From assembly GCA_965215505.1 (NCBI GenBank), contig OZ244065.1:3776001-3840000 (forward strand): a stretch of DNA of 64,000 bases. Reading direction: 5' to 3'. The notes beneath the pieces are model-generated. The model was not told the DNA's origin. It did no database searches and saw nothing but the letters and a program-made list of their open reading frames with translations. Made by a program: the position numbers and the translations under genes. The DNA is from Capsulimonadaceae bacterium. Lineage in GTDB: Bacteria; Armatimonadota; Armatimonadia; Armatimonadales; Capsulimonadaceae. Of this stretch, positions 13,758 through 55,097 are shown piece by piece. Position 1 is the first letter of the stretch; each line of letters starts with the position of its first letter.

Positions 13758-15921
<2,164 letters not shown>

Positions 15922-15961
15922 AGTTAATATAGTGTAATGATAAGGGAAAGGAGACAGAAAA

Positions 15962-17929
15962 ATGTGGCAGCGATTCACGGAAGCCGCCCGTCAGGTCGTG
16001 TTCTACGCGCAGGAAGAGGCCGGGAAATGGGGCGAAAGGTCCGTCAGCCCGGAACACGTCCTGCTCGGCATCACGCGCATCCCTGACAGTGTCGGGGCGG
16101 CCGTCCTCGAACAGCTCGGCGTGAGCCTGGAAGACATGCGGCTGGAGGTCCAGTCACACCTGGAGCCGGGCGAAGGCGGACCGGAGCAGGACATGCAGCT
16201 CACCGAGTCGGCCAAAAAGGTGATAGACTACGCCTACGAGGAGGCGAAGCGCCTGAAGAGCAGTGCCATCGGGGCCGAGCATCTGCTCCTGGGGGTGCTG
16301 CGCCTGCCGTATGGCATCGGTCCGGAGTCCCTGGCAAAGCTCGGCATCACGCTTGAAGCCGTTCGAAACCAATTGCTACAAACGCAATCCAAGGGTTTCA
16401 CGCTGGGGAAGCTGCCCCAACCGCGCAAGAAATCTCAGGATATGGCGGCGTATGTGGGGGCCTTGGAAGAACAGGCCAAGACGGCAGAGGGCCTCCTGAG
16501 CCTGGACGAAGCCGTCAAATTCCTCGGCACCAGCAAGCCGACTCTGTACCGCCTGCTCGGACAGGACGAGATCAAAGGACTCAAGGTAGGCCGCCAGTGG
16601 CGGTTCCGCCGCGCCGACCTGACCGCCTACATGGAGCGCGGCCCCGTGGCCGTCTCCGCCGCCCCGAAGGAGGATCTGGACATGGAACTCGCGTTTTTCT
16701 CGGACCTGCTCGGACAGGCCGCGCCGGACCTGACCGGCGACGCCGAAGCCAAGACCGTGCGGCTGGCTGAAGACATCTTCAAGCTCGCCATCCAGTCGCG
16801 GGCCAGCGACATCCACCTGGAGCCGAACGCCGACGACTTCCTGCTGCGCCTGCGCGTGGACGGCGTGCTGCAAGAAACGCGACGCCTGCCGTCCAGCACG
16901 AAAGAGTCGCTGACGGCCCGCTTCAAGATCATGGCCGAGATGGATACCAACGAGAAGCGGCTGCCGCAAGACGGGCGCATCCCCGTCAAGCACGAGGACA
17001 AGGACTTCGATTTCCGCGTCGCCGTCGTCCCGTCCGTGTACGGCGAGGCCGTCACCCTGCGGATTCTTGACCGCAGCACGGTCCTCCTCGGCCTGGACAG
17101 GCTGGGAATCGCGCCCGAGGACCTGCACCAGATCCGGGGCTTCATGCAGCAGCCGAACGGCATCGTCATCGCGACCGGCCCGACCGGGGCGGGCAAGACG
17201 ACCCTGCTCTATAGCTGTCTCCAGGAAGTGGCCGGGGTCGAGAAGAAGACCATGACCGTCGAGGACCCCGTGGAGTATGTCCTACCCTACACCACGCAGA
17301 CCCAGGTGAACAAGAAGGCCGGGCTGACCTTCCCCGCCGTCCTGCGCTCGCTGCTGCGGCAGGACCCGGACGTCATCCTGGTCGGCGAGATGCGCGACCT
17401 CGAAACCGCGCTGATCGCCGTCGAGGTTTCCCTGACCGGACACCTGCTGCTGACGTCCATGCACACCGGCGACGCCCCCTCGGCCCTGCTGCGCCTGCTG
17501 GACATGGGCGTCGAGCCGTACCTCGCCGGGGCGACCGTCGCGGGCGTCGTCGCCACCCGCCTGGTCCGCCGCGTCTGCGACGACTGCAAGCAGCCCGTGG
17601 ACCTGTCGGGCGAGCCAGGCCTGGGCTACGTCGCCCAACTCGCGCGGGAGGGCGGCTACGAGATCCCCACCGACGCGGTGTTCGTGCGCGGCGCGGGCTG
17701 CGAGTCGTGCCGGGGCCGGGGCTATCGGGGCCGGACGGGTCTGTACGAGGTCCTGCCCATGTCGGAGTCGCTGACCGAGGCCGTCCTGCGCCGCGCGCCG
17801 GTGGAGGAGCTGACCGACATCGCCGTCGAGGCCGGCATGCGGACCCTGCTGGCCGACGGCATCCGCAAGGCCGCCGCCGGCCTGACGACCATCGAGGAGG
17901 TCATGCGCGTGGTGACGGTGTCGGTGTGA
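15962..17929 (+). CDS. Fusion protein: Clp N-terminal repeat domain + excisionase-like HTH + PilB/GspE-family ATPase
   Basis: MWQRFTE...EHVLLG/EHLLLG repeats; LLSLDEAVKFLGTSKPTLYRL...KVGRQWRF; ASDIHLEP, PQDGR, GPTGAGKT, EDPVEY, LRQDPD, TGH..H, CxxC/CxxC. Confidence 0.9.
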   Translation: MWQRFTEAARQVVFYAQEEAGKWGERSVSPEHVLLGITRIPDSVGAAVLEQLGVSLEDMRLEVQSHLEPGEGGPEQDMQLTESAKKVIDYAYEEAKRLKSSAIGAEHLLLGVLRLPYGIGPESLAKLGITLEAVRNQLLQTQSKGFTLGKLPQPRKKSQDMAAYVGALEEQAKTAEGLLSLDEAVKFLGTSKPTLYRLLGQDEIKGLKVGRQWRFRRADLTAYMERGPVAVSAAPKEDLDMELAFFSDLLGQAAPDLTGDAEAKTVRLAEDIFKLAIQSRASDIHLEPNADDFLLRLRVDGVLQETRRLPSSTKESLTARFKIMAEMDTNEKRLPQDGRIPVKHEDKDFDFRVAVVPSVYGEAVTLRILDRSTVLLGLDRLGIAPEDLHQIRGFMQQPNGIVIATGPTGAGKTTLLYSCLQEVAGVEKKTMTVEDPVEYVLPYTTQTQVNKKAGLTFPAVLRSLLRQDPDVILVGEMRDLETALIAVEVSLTGHLLLTSMHTGDAPSALLRLLDMGVEPYLAGATVAGVVATRLVRRVCDDCKQPVDLSGEPGLGYVAQLAREGGYEIPTDAVFVRGAGCESCRGRGYRGRTGLYEVLPMSESLTEAVLRRAPVEELTDIAVEAGMRTLLADGIRKAAAGLTTIEEVMRVVTVSV

Positions 17930-17968: not shown

Positions 17969-18024
17969 GGGCGGGGGACCCCGCCCCTACAGCGCGTCCC
18001 GTAGGGGCGGGGTCCCCCCGCCCT
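17969..18024. repeat. GTAG-type REP doublet
   Basis: GGGCGGGGGACCCCGCCCCTAC and inverted GTAGGGGCGGGGTCCCCCCGCCC; related singlets near 12111, 19598, 30836, 52180, 60373, 62735. Confidence 0.75.
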
Positions 18025-18145
18025 TCTTTCCTTGCCCCTCTTCCCCTCCCTCTTGCCCATATTCTTTTTTCCAAAACCTTGCAGGATTCCGCCTGTCGGG
18101 CGCAGAAAAGTATTGGGAGAACTTATCTTTAGGGAGATTATCAGC

Positions 18146-20689: not shown

Positions 20690-21280
20690 CTACTCCTCGG
20701 TCAGCCAGGCGCGGGCGACGGCCCGGAGATGCGCCCGCCCGGCGTTGATCCGCGACTTGACCGTGCCCAGGGGGCAGCCGGTGATGCGGGCGATGTCGGC
20801 ATACGCCATCCCCTCCATGTCGCGCAGGACGACCGCCTCGCGCTGCTCGAGCGTTAGCCGGTCCAGGGCCGCCCCGATCGCCCGTTCCAAAGCGCCCATG
20901 ATCGCTCGGTCGCATGGGCCGGCCGCGCCCAGCATTGCCGCCGTCATCCCCTCCGTGAGCGGCCCGACCGGCAGTTTGGGCGATTTGGCGTGGTCTAAGA
21001 CTAGCCGCCGGGCGACCGTGAACAGCCACGTCCGAAACGCCACTTCGGGCCGGTAGGAGTGCCGCGCCCGCCAGACGCGCAGCCAGCACTCCTGCGCCAG
21101 ATCCTCGGCCAAGTCCCGGTCGGACACAAGCCGCGTCAGATAGTGGAACACGGCGGCCTCGTGCCGCCCCAGCAGAGCGTCGAAGGCCTGGGCGTCCCCC
21201 TGCGCCGCCCGCCGCATCAGCGTGGCATCTGTCGGCACGGGATTTGTCGGCACACCGTCCGAATGCTCGGCCTCTCGCAT
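20690..21280 (-). CDS. ECF sigma-70 factor
   Basis: AEDLAQECWLRVWR, FRTWLFTVARRLVLD, YADIARITGCPLGTVKSRINAGR. Confidence 0.93.
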   Translation of the reverse strand: MREAEHSDGVPTNPVPTDATLMRRAAQGDAQAFDALLGRHEAAVFHYLTRLVSDRDLAEDLAQECWLRVWRARHSYRPEVAFRTWLFTVARRLVLDHAKSPKLPVGPLTEGMTAAMLGAAGPCDRAIMGALERAIGAALDRLTLEQREAVVLRDMEGMAYADIARITGCPLGTVKSRINAGRAHLRAVARAWLTEE

Positions 21281-21416: not shown

Positions 21417-21827
21417 ATGAAGATTGCCCGCCCGTCCCGCCCCGCCCCTTTGGCCGCTCTGTCTCTGCTGGCCTTCGCCTTGGCCGGCTGCGCCTCCCCC
21501 AAGCCCACCGTCGTCGGCAAATGGCAGGGGACGGTCACGCAGCCAGGCGGTAACATGAGCACGCTATTCGAGTTCACGCCCGACAACAAGGAGACGATCA
21601 CCGTGACGCCGGTCGGCGTGCCGACGATCATCGTCATCCACGGCACCTACGCGATCAACGGCGCGAACATGACCCAGACCTTCACGACGATAACGATGGG
21701 AAGTCAAACCAGGCCCGCGCCTGCTTCCTCCGGCAGTCCCCGGCCGTTCACGCTGGACGGCGATCACCTGATGCTGTCGGACCCGACCGGCAAGCAGACG
21801 ATGACGCTGACGCGCGTGAAGCAGTGA
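21417..21827 (+). CDS. Lipoprotein, lipocalin-like beta-barrel
   Basis: Lipobox LAGC; VVGKWQG...FEFT...GTY...LTLTRVK. Confidence 0.8.
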   Translation: MKIARPSRPAPLAALSLLAFALAGCASPKPTVVGKWQGTVTQPGGNMSTLFEFTPDNKETITVTPVGVPTIIVIHGTYAINGANMTQTFTTITMGSQTRPAPASSGSPRPFTLDGDHLMLSDPTGKQTMTLTRVKQ

Positions 21828-21850
21828 CGGGCGGTAATAGAAAATCCCCG

Positions 21851-22267
21851 ATGAAGAAAACTTCCCTGTCCCTGCGCCCCGCCTCCCTCGCGGTTTTGCC
21901 CCTCCTGGCGGCTGTGCTGGCCGGCTGCGCCCCCAAGCCCACCATCGTCGGCAAGTGGCAGGGCACACTTACGCAGCCGGGCGGGGCGATCACCAGCACG
22001 TTCGAATTCACCCAGGGCGGCAAGGAGACGATCACCAGCCAGGCGACCGGCGGGGGGACAACGGTGGACATCACGGCGGGCGGCACCTACACCGTCAGCG
22101 GCACGAGCCTGACCCAGACCCTCACGACGATGACCCTGCGCGGCCAGCCCATGCCCATCCCGCCCGGCCAAGCCAAGTCTGCGCCGTTCACGCTGGACGG
22201 CGACCGCCTGACCCTGACCAGCCCCGGCACCGGCGAACCGCTGACGCTGACGCGCGTGAAGGAGTAG
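21851..22267 (+). CDS. Lipoprotein, tandem paralog of 21417-21827
   Basis: Lipobox LAGC; IVGKWQGTLTQPGG, PFTLDGD, LTLTRVK. Confidence 0.8.
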   Translation: MKKTSLSLRPASLAVLPLLAAVLAGCAPKPTIVGKWQGTLTQPGGAITSTFEFTQGGKETITSQATGGGTTVDITAGGTYTVSGTSLTQTLTTMTLRGQPMPIPPGQAKSAPFTLDGDRLTLTSPGTGEPLTLTRVKE

Positions 22268-52203: not shown

Positions 52204-53805
52204 TTATCGCCCCGCCCCTTCATTGACCCGCCCGCCCCCCAATGCCTCCAAAAACGCCTCCCCTTCCAACTCCTGCACCTCGTACCGCTCCCCCTCCTCG
52301 GCCAGCGGCCCCAGCGCCTGCGTCGTCTCCAGGCCAAGCGTCACTTCTTTGACGAACGCCGCTCCCAGCGCCGCTTGCAGCCGCGCGCCGTCGTGGTGGA
52401 AATACTCCTGCAACAGCGGCACGACCCGCCGATACCAGGCGAAACGCAGGTCGTCCGCCGTCCTGACCCCCATCAGGTAGCTGTGCCCGATCCGGTGATC
52501 CGGGTCCAGCAGGGCCGCCACGCGCCTGTTCAGCCGCGTCAGCAGCTCCTGCAAGTTGACCCCGGCTACGTCCTCAGACAGCAACTCCGGCTTTGGCGGC
52601 ATCTCGACGAACGTGAACCGCCGCCGCAGGGCAAGGTCCAGCAGGGCGATGGAGCGGTCCGCCGTATTCATCGTGCCCAGGATCGTCAGGTTGGCGGGGA
52701 CGCCGAACCGCTCCCCCGAGTACGGCAGCGTCACCCGCACCTCGTTCGGCATTCCCAGCCGCTTGTCGTCCTCGATCAGCGTGATTAGTTCCCCTAACAC
52801 CTTCGCGATGTTCGCCCGGTTGATCTCGTCAATGATGATCAGGTACTCCTTGTCCGGGTTCCCCTCCGCCGTCCGGCAGGCCCGCTTGAACACGCCGTCC
52901 ACGACCGCGTAGCTCACCTGCCCCTCATGGATGACCGGCTTGACCCCTTCCACGAACTCCTCATAGGCGAATGACTGATGAAACGTCACCATTTCCACCT
53001 TGTCCGCGTCGGTGAACGCCTTGGCGAACTGCGTCACCAGCCACGTCTTGCCCGTGCCGGGCGGTCCGTAGAGGAGGATGTTCTTGGTGCGCTCCGCCAT
53101 TCGGAGCAGCGGCTTGACGGCTTCCGGTACAAAGCGCTTCTGGGCGACACTTTTAGGATGTTGGGTCCCATCTTTTTCTTCTAAACCCATCAAGTTCAGG
53201 TGGTGGTAAGTCGAGCGAGGTACACGAACGGCTTGGTCGCTCATGGGCCTGCTTATTAGCTCGTTGTTATGATCTAGCCTCGTTACCAAAGTGCTGTAGT
53301 CAGCATCGTATTCCACATAAGTCGCTGGTTTCCAGACAGCACGATTCCATGACTTGATCTCGCTGGTAGCGACCATGCATTGTACTTGATTACCTTGACT
53401 CACCAAGATGTTTGCCGCTTCTGCCTGTTTGGGGTGTAGAGGCATATAGTCCTCTCCAAGTTCCCAGGTCGTTTCGGCGGGCGTTGGATTAGCTTTTGCT
53501 ACGCGGGCTTCACCTCGCTTGGTGATCTTATAGAAGCCATGACCTGACACGCTTGTCGGGTACAACTCACCTTTCTTCACTAGTTCATGCCTAACAAGTT
53601 GCACGTCGTTTTTCCACCGGCTGTCACGCTGGCTGCCCTGTTTAACAACGAGTTCTTCCTGTGTCAGTTTGAATAAATCTGCTAATGGCTGATACAAATT
53701 GGATGGTTTGGCCTGCCCACCTTGGCGTATGATCTCTTCGAGCAAGGGCAACTCCATATCCTTACGGTTCGGAAAAGTGAAACTATAGTCAGTAGATTGT
53801 GGCAC
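52204..53805 (-). CDS. mcrB: McrB-family AAA+ GTPase with Mrr_N-like winged-helix N-terminus
   Basis: GPPGTGKT, FHQSFAYEEFVEG, IIDEINR, MNTADRS, ALRRRF, IGHSY, PLLQEYF. Confidence 0.92.
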   Translation of the reverse strand: MPQSTDYSFTFPNRKDMELPLLEEIIRQGGQAKPSNLYQPLADLFKLTQEELVVKQGSQRDSRWKNDVQLVRHELVKKGELYPTSVSGHGFYKITKRGEARVAKANPTPAETTWELGEDYMPLHPKQAEAANILVSQGNQVQCMVATSEIKSWNRAVWKPATYVEYDADYSTLVTRLDHNNELISRPMSDQAVRVPRSTYHHLNLMGLEEKDGTQHPKSVAQKRFVPEAVKPLLRMAERTKNILLYGPPGTGKTWLVTQFAKAFTDADKVEMVTFHQSFAYEEFVEGVKPVIHEGQVSYAVVDGVFKRACRTAEGNPDKEYLIIIDEINRANIAKVLGELITLIEDDKRLGMPNEVRVTLPYSGERFGVPANLTILGTMNTADRSIALLDLALRRRFTFVEMPPKPELLSEDVAGVNLQELLTRLNRRVAALLDPDHRIGHSYLMGVRTADDLRFAWYRRVVPLLQEYFHHDGARLQAALGAAFVKEVTLGLETTQALGPLAEEGERYEVQELEGEAFLEALGGGRVNEGAGR

Positions 53806-53807
53806 TG

Positions 53808-55097
53808 TCAGATTACCCCCTGAAAAACATCTTTCAGTTCCTCAATCAACTGCCGGATACCTTCCGGTTTGCCTAGCTCGACGCGCAAACCCAGCGTGGC
53901 GGCCTGGACCGTGCCGCCGCCTTCCAGGTCGAATCGGAGGCGCAGGGGTTCGGCCATGCCTGCGGTCTGGGGGTAGAGGAGCAGGACGCGGGGGCAGGCG
54001 TAGCGGCGGGCGTAGGCGTGCATCTGGTACATGTCAGCGGGGGTGATGCCTGATGCGCCGCGCTCGGCGGGGGCGAGGGCTTTGTACTTGGTGTCCAGCA
54101 GGAGCGGGAAAGTGCCGTCAGCGGCGCGCAGGGCGAGGTCGGGTTTCAGGTGGAAGGCGGCGCGGCCTTCGCGGCGGGCGAGGTGCAGTGCGGTCCCCGC
54201 CGATTGAGGGAGCAGGGTGCAGTCGGCCAGCGAGGGCGGCAGTATGGCAGCGCGGTGGCATCGGAGGAAGTTGAAGACGAAGGACTCGAACAGGCGATTC
54301 ATGTCGAAGACGAAGGCGAACGCGTCCCGGTCGCCGCCCGAAAGCTGTAGGGAGCCGCCGTCGAGGAAGAGCCGGGCCAGGGTCAGCAGGGGGGCGTAGG
54401 CGGGGTGCAGGCGCGTCAGGGACACGGCGGACGCCTCGGCGGCGGTGACATTAGGGAGCAGAGTCACCCCGTCCATCCAGGCGCGCAGGGTGGACAGAGC
54501 GCGGCGGTTGTCGGAGTCGCGGGTGAGTGTCCACAGGCGCTCCACGACGAAGCGGAGGATGCGGTTCAGGGGGTTGTCGGGCGTGAACTCATCGTAGGTG
54601 ACGCAGAACCGGTGCCGATGGGCGGGGCGGCGGAGCTGGGCGGTCAGCCGCCACTTGCCGCGCAGGAGGGGCGAGTCGTCGTCTTCGATTGGGATGTAGC
54701 CCCGGACGATGCCGCGCTGCCAGACGTCGGTGAGGTGGGCCGTGAACAGGCGGGTCAGGACCTCGAACCAGTTGGCATGGCGGCGCAGCAGGGGGGCCAG
54801 GGCGTGTTCGCGGATGGGGAGGTCGGCGGCGACGGCCAGCAGGTGGAGCAGGTTCCGGGCGGCCTCATCGGCACTGCACTCCTCGTGCCGGTAGATTTTG
54901 GGCAGGATTTGGATCGTCTCGCGCCCCAGCCGGACGACGCCGACGTACTGAGTCGCCTGCACGGCGGGGGAACCGGTCCGGTCAAGGACGGCCCGCAACA
55001 CATCGTCGCCTCGCTCCCGGTTCAGGCGCTCCAATGAGGCCAGGCGGCGCGGGTCCCAGGGGAAGGGGGCGGTCTTGTTCTCGAAGAGGGTGAGCAT
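53808..55097 (-). CDS. mcrC: McrC-family PD-(D/E)xK nuclease subunit
   Basis: YVGVV, QILPK, DNPLNRIL, FDMNRLFE, KPD...LDTKYK, DMYQMHAY. Confidence 0.92.
   Translation of the reverse strand: MLTLFENKTAPFPWDPRRLASLERLNRERGDDVLRAVLDRTGSPAVQATQYVGVVRLGRETIQILPKIYRHEECSADEAARNLLHLLAVAADLPIREHALAPLLRRHANWFEVLTRLFTAHLTDVWQRGIVRGYIPIEDDDSPLLRGKWRLTAQLRRPAHRHRFCVTYDEFTPDNPLNRILRFVVERLWTLTRDSDNRRALSTLRAWMDGVTLLPNVTAAEASAVSLTRLHPAYAPLLTLARLFLDGGSLQLSGGDRDAFAFVFDMNRLFESFVFNFLRCHRAAILPPSLADCTLLPQSAGTALHLARREGRAAFHLKPDLALRAADGTFPLLLDTKYKALAPAERGASGITPADMYQMHAYARRYACPRVLLLYPQTAGMAEPLRLRFDLEGGGTVQAATLGLRVELGKPEGIRQLIEELKDVFQGVI

Follow-up and report, generated by a model that had tools for sequence, protein, structure and literature searches.

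A PilB/GspE-class ATPase fused to Clp_N and winged-helix domains in a Capsulimonadaceae bacterium, and a conserved palindrome at its promoter

A gene of unusual domain composition lies at positions 15962 to 17929, on the forward strand, of a 64,000-nucleotide stretch of the genome of a Capsulimonadaceae bacterium (phylum Armatimonadota; GenBank assembly GCA_965215505.1, contig OZ244065.1, positions 3,776,001 to 3,840,000). This whole stretch is called the window below, and coordinates without a prefix refer to it. The gene encodes a protein of 655 amino acids (aa) in which a ClpC-type N-terminal domain, a helix-turn-helix (HTH) of the excisionase/MerR type and a PilB/GspE-class ATPase are joined in one open reading frame (ORF). 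PilB/GspE ATPases are treated as dedicated pilus and secretion motors. Here a palindrome overlaps the promoter of the gene, and judging from sequence we consider the chances slightly better than even that the protein is a self-regulating, DNA-binding "trigger-enzyme" ATPase, which would bind this palindrome at its own promoter. The features concerned are as follows (pLDDT, predicted local distance difference test).

15962 to 17929, + strand: ORF of 655 aa with two Clp_N repeats, HTH_17 and T2SSE ATPase (open frame, translation, Pfam and NCBIfam)
15962 to 16390, + strand: ClpC-type N-terminal domain, aa 1-143, two Clp_N repeats (Pfam, PDB match, pLDDT mostly above 90)
16397 to 16486, + strand: disordered linker, aa 146-175, of varying length across the family (pLDDT below 50; gapped in the family alignment)
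16493 to 16642, + strand: winged helix of the HTH_17/excisionase-MerR type, aa 178-227, with the wing KVGRQWRFR (profiles, model, fold matches)
16667 to 16711, + strand: conserved linker helix, aa 236-250, KEDLDMELAFF (family alignment, AlphaFold2 model)
16748 to 17908, + strand: PilB/GspE second N-terminal domain (N2D) and C-terminal domain (CTD), the ATPase, aa 263-649 (Pfam T2SSE, PDB match; Walker A at 17177-17203, tetra-Cys at 17576-17710)
15893 to 15921, + strand: σ70-type promoter, −35 TTGACT at 15893-15898, 17-nt spacer, TG-extended −10 TATTAT at 15916-15921 (10 of 12 matches)
15902 to 15943, either strand: 42-bp candidate operator TTATCA-N30-TGATAA (inverted-repeat scan, promoter alignment)
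15948 to 15953, + strand: Shine-Dalgarno sequence AAGGAG, 8 nt 5' of the ATG (read from sequence)

Domain layout and family

The three-part fusion had been proposed in an initial annotation made from the letters alone, and it was recovered in profile scans with Pfam and NCBIfam. Clp_N was matched in two stretches (84.1 bits, cut-off 20.7), HTH_17 (PF12728) over aa 178-227 (52 bits against a cut-off of 27) and T2SSE over aa 263-649 with 380.7 bits. An AlphaFold2 model on a 61-sequence alignment (mean pLDDT 88.6, predicted template modelling score 0.61) contains a confident Clp N-domain, a tether at aa 146-175, a winged helix at aa 178-225, a helix at aa 236-250, and the N2D and CTD of the ATPase.

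The HTH scored above the curated cut-offs, also against the NCBIfam 'excise' model TIGR01764 (47.9 bits, cut-off 28.8), and was modelled as a winged helix of the MerR/excisionase type. In the full-length model and in a separate model of the HTH, DSSP assigned the order strand-helix-helix-strand-strand-helix. Fold matches of the HTH model found with Foldseek were BldC, RdfS, Xis, TraN, RacA, SoxR and BmrR, with a probability of 1.0 and an E-value of only about 0.01, because the domain is small. For BldC (6ama), RdfS (8dgl), Pukovnik Xis (4j2n), SoxR (2zhh) and BmrR (3d70), TM-scores to the target were 0.66-0.80, with a root-mean-square deviation of 1.0-2.9 Å over 49-57 columns. A PDB sequence search with the HTH alone returned nothing meaningful, and the Pfam models MerR and MerR_1 had no match in the 655-aa protein. 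Members of the MerR family possess a coiled-coil dimerization helix and an effector domain. In contrast, the HTH here is followed by the short helix at aa 236-250 and then by the ATPase. Small response regulators of Acidobacteriota/Vicinamibacterales (L042:315-893, L052:7986-8591 and L054:7992-8579) carry an N-terminal HTH_17 with the wing RVGRQWRFRK and then a receiver domain, which is an unusual order. The occurrence of this HTH_17 subtype as a DNA-binding or output module in such regulators counts in favor of DNA binding by the protein described here.

The catalytic motifs were read directly from the sequence: Walker A GPTGAGKTT (aa 406-414), Asp box EDPVE (aa 434-438), Walker B DVILVGEMRD with its catalytic glutamate, His box TGHLLLTSMHT (aa 492-502), and the predicted zinc-site residues Cys539, Cys542, Cys580 and Cys583. 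All catalytic motifs are thus retained, together with the tetra-Cys site, as the initial annotation had stated. In a PDB sequence search aa 260-652 matched residues 198-585 of Geobacter PilB with an E-value of 2e-104. The protein shares with PilB, GspE and PilF (Geobacter PilB, 5tsg/6olj; Thermus PilF, 5it5/6f8l; Vibrio EpsE, 4ksr) the N2D and CTD, Walker A and B, the Asp and His boxes and the tetra-Cys site, and solved homologues of this core are hexamers. Unlike them, it has no MshEN/N1 domain, lies outside a pilus or secretion cluster, falls below the equivalog cut-offs and carries HTH and Clp_N instead. The score against the GspE equivalog TIGR02533 was 457.7 (cut-off 630.25), aligned only from profile position 100, and that against the PilB equivalog TIGR02538 was 439.3 (cut-off 675.65), aligned only from profile position 173. 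No Pfam match to MshEN/T2SSE_N (PF05157) was obtained in the 655-aa protein.

The 6.18-Mb genome of the same organism contains seven full-length T2SSE genes. The other six all carry MshEN, and some of them adjoin PilC, PilT or secretin genes; only the gene at 15962-17929 is without MshEN. Another PilB paralogue (L004:1-2682, + strand; G000:C1 at about 5293773-5296454) has a response-regulator receiver domain ahead of MshEN and T2SSE; its ORF extends past the end of the locus and is 893 aa or longer.

Across the 61 aligned family members the four cysteines are kept in all 61, while the Walker A lysine is replaced by arginine in 7 and the Walker B glutamate is lost in 13, with the HTH intact there. 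It seems from this alignment that the strongest selection across the family is on the HTH and the zinc site rather than on catalysis. Members with altered Walker residues, which look catalytically degenerate, include P0020, P0025, P0101, P0104, P0105, P0114 and P0116.

The N-terminal part (aa 1-147) matched the N-domains of ClpC1/ClpC with an E-value of 7e-27 in the PDB sequence search. It has the two-repeat Clp_N fold common to the ClpC/ClpC1 N-domain and stand-alone ClpC2. In contrast to ClpC there are no AAA+ modules: the D1/D2 Clp modules are absent, and the NCBIfam ClpB, ClpA, ClpG and ClpK models match the N-domain stretch only. The pocket Thr and Arg are also replaced. The initial annotation had noted that the positions matching ClpC R9/R83 and T31/T105 read A/S and P/A with both Glu kept. 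Alignment to the ClpC1/ClpC N-domains bears this out, with Arg replaced by A8 and S83, Thr by P30 and A105, and E31 and E106 kept. K85 is likewise kept, and Arg8 is retained in most members of the 61-sequence alignment. According to one report (PMC12583610), the equivalents of E31, E106 and K85 are crucial, E32/E106 for phospho-arginine binding. Because these Glu are kept here and most relatives keep Arg8, the residues alone do not decide whether the phospho-arginine pocket is degenerate, as the initial annotation had supposed.

When aa 1-262 were used as query, Clp_N, HTH_17 and T2SSE occurred together in 100 of the best 120 clusters listed. With aa 172-262 the three domains were found in 107, and HTH_17 with T2SSE only in 13, of the best 120 clusters listed. 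In source annotations these proteins go by no other name than "excisionase family DNA binding protein", "type II/IV secretion system protein" or "PilB". Contigs from different studies bridge the domain junctions (X9 record 26, 15994-16869; X5 record 17, 15597-16534; X2 record 2, 15714-16606), so that the fusion is not a chimera of assembly. No paper on an HTH- or Clp_N-bearing PilB/GspE was found in a literature search of incomplete coverage.

Among species-representative genomes, full-length matches occur solely in Armatimonadota (L013-L018 and L021), and those that begin at the HTH come from Abditibacteriaceae, Chthonomonadaceae, Planctomycetota, Verrucomicrobiota and Lentisphaerota. Related loci were fetched by the HTH-wing peptide patterns VGRQWRFR and KVGRQWR. 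In a quick tree one clade (support 97) comprises the three-domain proteins and another (support 100) the six MshEN paralogues; the outgroup is thin, being only the six paralogues of the same genome, and L019 groups with that clade. On these sequence comparisons, the core of the family is HTH_17-T2SSE, to which Clp_N appears to have been added in one Armatimonadota clade. Among 201 genomes sampled from the phylum, 25 gave a match to the HTH-linker query (aa 170-262), some of them in short ORFs only. A phylum-wide search with aa 1-262 returned mostly ClpC N-domains and was uninformative. Three candidates for stand-alone Clp_N+HTH_17 proteins (P0147, P0148 and P0153) were set aside, since each is a piece of the full protein, cut short by truncation or a frameshift. 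Clusters of Clp_N+HTH_17 proteins of 210-236 aa in the atlas scored 0.80-0.83, under the 0.9 line, and are leads only.

The promoter palindrome

The promoter scan returned 4 sites against a shuffle mean of 0.3. In the promoter of the gene, the left half-site TTATCA (15902-15907) of the candidate operator lies in the spacer and the right half-site TGATAA (15938-15943) lies downstream of the −10 element. The half-sites belong to imperfect arms of 19 nt (15902-15920 and 15925-15943) which are 79% complementary. An electrophoretic mobility shift assay on 15890-15945 had been suggested in the initial annotation, and that region contains this phylogenetically conserved palindrome.

In the orthologues L013 and L014 the arms are perfect over 12 nt (TTATCATTTCGT and ACGAAATGATAA). 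An alignment of 10 orthologous promoters shows TTGACT, T.TCA and TGATAA unchanged in all 10, and the flanks diverge. The palindrome is also present 5' of the HTH-only Armatimonadota genes L019, L020 and L026, and TTATCA-N30-TGATAA is kept in L026. In the genome of the organism itself the pattern TTATCA-N24-36-TGATAA occurs twice, with an AT-rich interior only in the copy at 15902-15943, and there is no second paired site in that genome. In the genomes of five relatives the pattern occurs 1 to 3 times each, and the AT-rich copy is the one at the HTH-PilB gene. A Fur box was considered and set aside: the arms extend to ...wwwCGT, stand 30 nt apart, and occur once per genome at the HTH-PilB gene. 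Runs X4, X5 and X9 contain near-identical strains with differences at 15927 and/or 15928, in the central spacer of the candidate operator; no strain difference is listed in the arms or the promoter hexamers, which is weak evidence since the strains are very close.

The half-site was then carried over from Armatimonadota to Planctomycetota, Verrucomicrobiota and Lentisphaerota (together PVC). At six Planctomycetota/Verrucomicrobiota loci the 110 nt upstream contained 9 occurrences of TATCA/TGATA, where the composition of these windows predicts 1.24. A scan of metagenome contigs with the PVC alignment gave 62 loci, and 46 of them, independent of the loci used before, extended 260 nt or more beyond the 5' side of the HTH. 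When inverted hexamers were counted de novo, TATCAT/ATGATA ranked first; it was present at 14 of these 46 loci and in none of 44 control windows, which are coding DNA of different composition; with the same controls, the palindrome TATCA..TGATA was present in 16 of 46 against 0 of 44, and two or more half-sites in 25 of 46 against 2 of 44.

In 17 PVC loci (among them L111, L120, L122, L128, L130, L133, L138, L139, L146, L164, L034 and L036) the palindrome takes a 19-bp form, TATCAT-N7-ATGATA, and in most of these it exactly fills the interval between a TTGACA/TTTACA-like and a TAnnAT-like hexamer. In MerR-regulated promoters the dyad operator lies inside a 19-20-bp spacer between −35 and −10. 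This layout is present in the PVC relatives, whereas the promoter in the window has the optimal 17-nt spacer and half-sites on either side of −10. The perfect PVC palindrome occurs in 2 of 5 PVC genomes, there as a single copy at the HTH-PilB gene. Two Lentisphaerota loci have TCAGA/TCTGA arms instead and a different recognition helix; TCAGA/TCTGA was found 4 times against 0.38 expected, a count that is not an independent test as the arms were defined on the same two loci.

Self-regulation and competing explanations

The reading that we favor may be put as follows. The protein would be a cytoplasmic ATPase of the PilB/GspE class in which the MshEN/N1 docking domain has been replaced by HTH_17, with Clp_N ahead of it on a flexible tether. 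The HTH would bind TTATCA...TGATAA around the −10 element of its own strong σ70 promoter, the half-sites, about three helical turns apart, being contacted by two HTHs of one oligomer, and the protein would presumably repress its own synthesis. DNA binding would probably be modulated by nucleotide state or by engagement of a partner. Clp_N might serve for docking, either of a partner or of a phospho-arginine mark; both McsB and ClpC are encoded in the genome.

Self-regulation is the simplest explanation because no DNA-binding domain other than the HTH of the protein itself accompanies the palindrome in every case, with no conserved neighbor. The finding of one such site per genome searched points in the same direction, to a trigger enzyme, an ATPase with some further task that would set its own level by binding DNA, rather than to a wider role. 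The initial annotation had suggested a DNA-binding, partner-recruiting regulator or motor, or a link between pilus state and transcription or proteolysis. This is supported in part. The architecture is real and conserved, the HTH is a winged helix by score and by fold, and the gene is not linked to pilus genes; the conserved palindrome makes DNA-binding regulation likely. Recruitment of a partner by Clp_N, a tie to pilus state or proteolysis and motor action on DNA are hypothetical. With half-sites flanking −10 and an optimal 17-nt spacer, repression is the likely direction; the promoter layout in PVC would also allow MerR-like activation. The promoter palindrome is a new element here, and it would give the proposal a concrete, testable mechanism.

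Trigger enzymes that repress their own genes include PutA and BirA. The likeness is limited to a common logic, a catalytic protein with a DNA-binding domain acting on its own promoter, and involves no homology. Ring ATPases with DNA-binding domains are also known in the enhancer-binding proteins of the NtrC type and in FtsK with its γ domain. These likewise combine a hexameric P-loop ATPase with a (winged) HTH reading a specific motif, which for the protein described here is a prediction as to both hexamer and binding. It differs from them in that it is PilT/VirB11-like, not AAA+ or FtsK, and in that its site overlaps a σ70-type promoter, not a σ54 enhancer or a polarity motif.

Within at least four phyla, then, a subfamily has dropped the platform-docking domain and gained a predicted sequence-specific DNA-binding domain, each gene with an apparent private operator. 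If the binding is true, a PilB-class ATPase would be a regulator of its own transcription and a compact model for ring ATPases turned to regulation, and the pair of operator and HTH would be a ready-made orthogonal, single-target regulatory part.

Several points weigh against this reading. The palindrome could be bound by another regulator, and a simple dimer would not usually contact half-sites that are 30-36 bp apart. The upstream region of L015, which has all three domains, differs and is without the motif; no half-site is present in L025, and a single one in each of L016, L024, L033 and L035. Of the 46 metagenome loci, 30 lack the palindrome in the 260 nt that precede the HTH and 21 contain at most one half-site, and the nature of the control windows given above has also to be counted. 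The half-site was defined after inspection of the Armatimonadota promoters, whose related sequences are not independent. The invariance of the wing among the loci is partly by construction, since wing patterns were used to fetch them. Finally, the spread is patchy: of seven further genomes from the genus, one gave a match to the HTH-linker query.

By analogy, the favored reading can be extended to a mechanochemical switch, which we think quite improbable. The nucleotide cycle of the ring would twist or release its own MerR-type operator, and Clp_N would read phospho-arginine placed by McsB, perhaps on the invariant, Arg-rich wing KVGRQWRFR of the HTH itself, as in the case of CtsR. Such a switch would couple protein-quality-control signalling to motor production. 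In the genome of the organism a gene for a McsB-type arginine kinase directly adjoins clpC. All five genomes searched that encode the three-domain protein have McsB, as do 4 of 5 Armatimonadota genomes that encode the HTH-only form, and its presence does not discriminate between them. In a bolder variant of the switch, the ring would be loaded at the palindrome and act as a sequence-targeted DNA translocase.

Apart from self-regulation, it is conceivable, if unlikely, that the palindrome belongs to some other regulator, with the HTH holding the ring on different or non-specific DNA, for instance as a motor of DNA uptake or translocation. In Thermus, transformation requires PilF, an ATPase of the PilB family that is reported to bind DNA and RNA (PMC3583032), and TraN, among the fold matches of the HTH, is a dsDNA-binding type IV secretion protein. 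ComEC (Competence domain) divergently adjoins the HTH-PilB gene at two of the 18 related loci (L033:6138-7091, − strand; L038:6235-7842, − strand), but this linkage is missing at the other 16 and in the window. Moreover, no conserved regulator gene accompanies the locus, and the half-site is common to HTH-PilB loci across phyla, as the sole such site per genome.

A further explanation, which we regard as decidedly improbable, is that of an ordinary ATPase of a type IV pilus or type II secretion system that serves an unlinked platform, with HTH and Clp_N as protein-protein adaptors that bind no DNA. The motifs and the zinc site are intact in this copy, and the core is about as close to solved PilB as true PilBs are (the E-value of 2e-104 given above). 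There are also three PilC-like (T2SSF) genes without a nearby ATPase in the genome, at about 0.691, 2.007 and 2.652 Mb; nothing ties any of the three to the ATPase at 15962-17929. One relative (L026) has two soluble PilC-like domains at the N-terminal position occupied here by Clp_N. Against these points, MshEN/N1 is lacking here, unlike in all six paralogues, both equivalog cut-offs were missed, the gene is never beside pilus genes in 18 loci, and catalytic residues are degenerate in part of the family. Nor would an ordinary motor account for the conserved palindrome that accompanies the gene from one phylum to another.

Much less probable still is a horizontally acquired mobile-element or defence module composed of an excisionase-like HTH and an ATPase. 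HTH_17 is indeed an excisionase family, the spread within the genus is patchy as noted, and there was a weak match to the NCBIfam MADS1 HTH model (34 bits against a cut-off of 80). However, no integrase, transposase or defence gene adjoins 15962-17929 in the window, the order Mem_trans-pyrG-gene is kept in Capsulimonadaceae orthologues of about 50% identity, and the three-domain proteins form the single clade described above. Assembly chimera or pseudogene can practically be dismissed, as no point supports it, the layout recurs in the listed clusters with contigs across its junctions, the frame is open and the AlphaFold2 model is confident.

Neighboring genes and further observations

The gene is monocistronic and stands apart from pilus genes; the former follows from a terminator-like hairpin behind it, a weak call. 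The features flanking it are as follows.

13923 to 15596, − strand: pyrG (CTP synthase), divergent neighbor (CTP_synth_N from aa 108 of the long ORF; conserved start at 15596)
18003 to 18025, + strand: intrinsic-terminator-like hairpin 3' of the stop codon (weak: 2 terminator-like sites against a shuffle mean of 2.0, no enrichment)

The longest pyrG ORF (13923-15908, − strand) is over-extended at its 5' end by about 104 codons. With the true start at 15596 the intergenic region is 365 bp, not 53 bp, and a promoter-like site for pyrG lies in it at 15738-15709. A divergent pyrG is likewise found in L017, L018 and L021. Further neighbors include a metallophosphoesterase gene and a gene for an extracytoplasmic function (ECF) sigma factor. 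The latter lies near two small ORFs without a Pfam match, in the region of 20690-21280 (− strand) and 21417-22267 (+ strand), and no anti-sigma factor was identified there.

The initial annotation had found no pilin, PilC or secretin genes nearby, and this was upheld: none of these domains occurs in the 47 window ORFs scanned (21 + 26), and no pilus gene lies within three ORFs of the gene in the 18 related loci. Nor is any neighbor or regulator gene conserved across those 18 loci. In L037 a PilZ-domain gene is situated two ORFs upstream.

The L026 protein (L026:7224-9425, + strand), from a metagenome-assembled genome of Abditibacteriaceae, carries its two PilC-like (T2SSF) domains, which have no membrane segments, before HTH_17-T2SSE. 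Its Walker B glutamate is lost, and its C-terminal end looks frameshifted. As these domains stand in place of Clp_N, the N-terminal slot appears to take different helical modules of the partner type.

Clp_N was also met in another fusion of the same genome, outside the window. An ORF of about 729 aa (G000:C1:4018692-4020881, + strand; L096:898-3084) joins two ClpC-type N-domains, with four Clp_N repeats, to ornithine carbamoyltransferase, and this combination accounts for 7 of the best 120 clusters listed for the aa 1-262 query. The pairing is curious, in that a domain of the phospho-arginine-reader type is fused to an enzyme of arginine biosynthesis. No paper on such a fusion was found in the literature search, whose coverage is incomplete. 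Together with the Clp_N of the protein at 15962-17929, it suggests that ClpC N-domains serve more widely as portable modules in this phylum.

Elsewhere in the window, at 52204-55097 (− strand), lies a McrBC-type restriction pair, formed by an Mrr_N+AAA_5 protein and a McrBC component.

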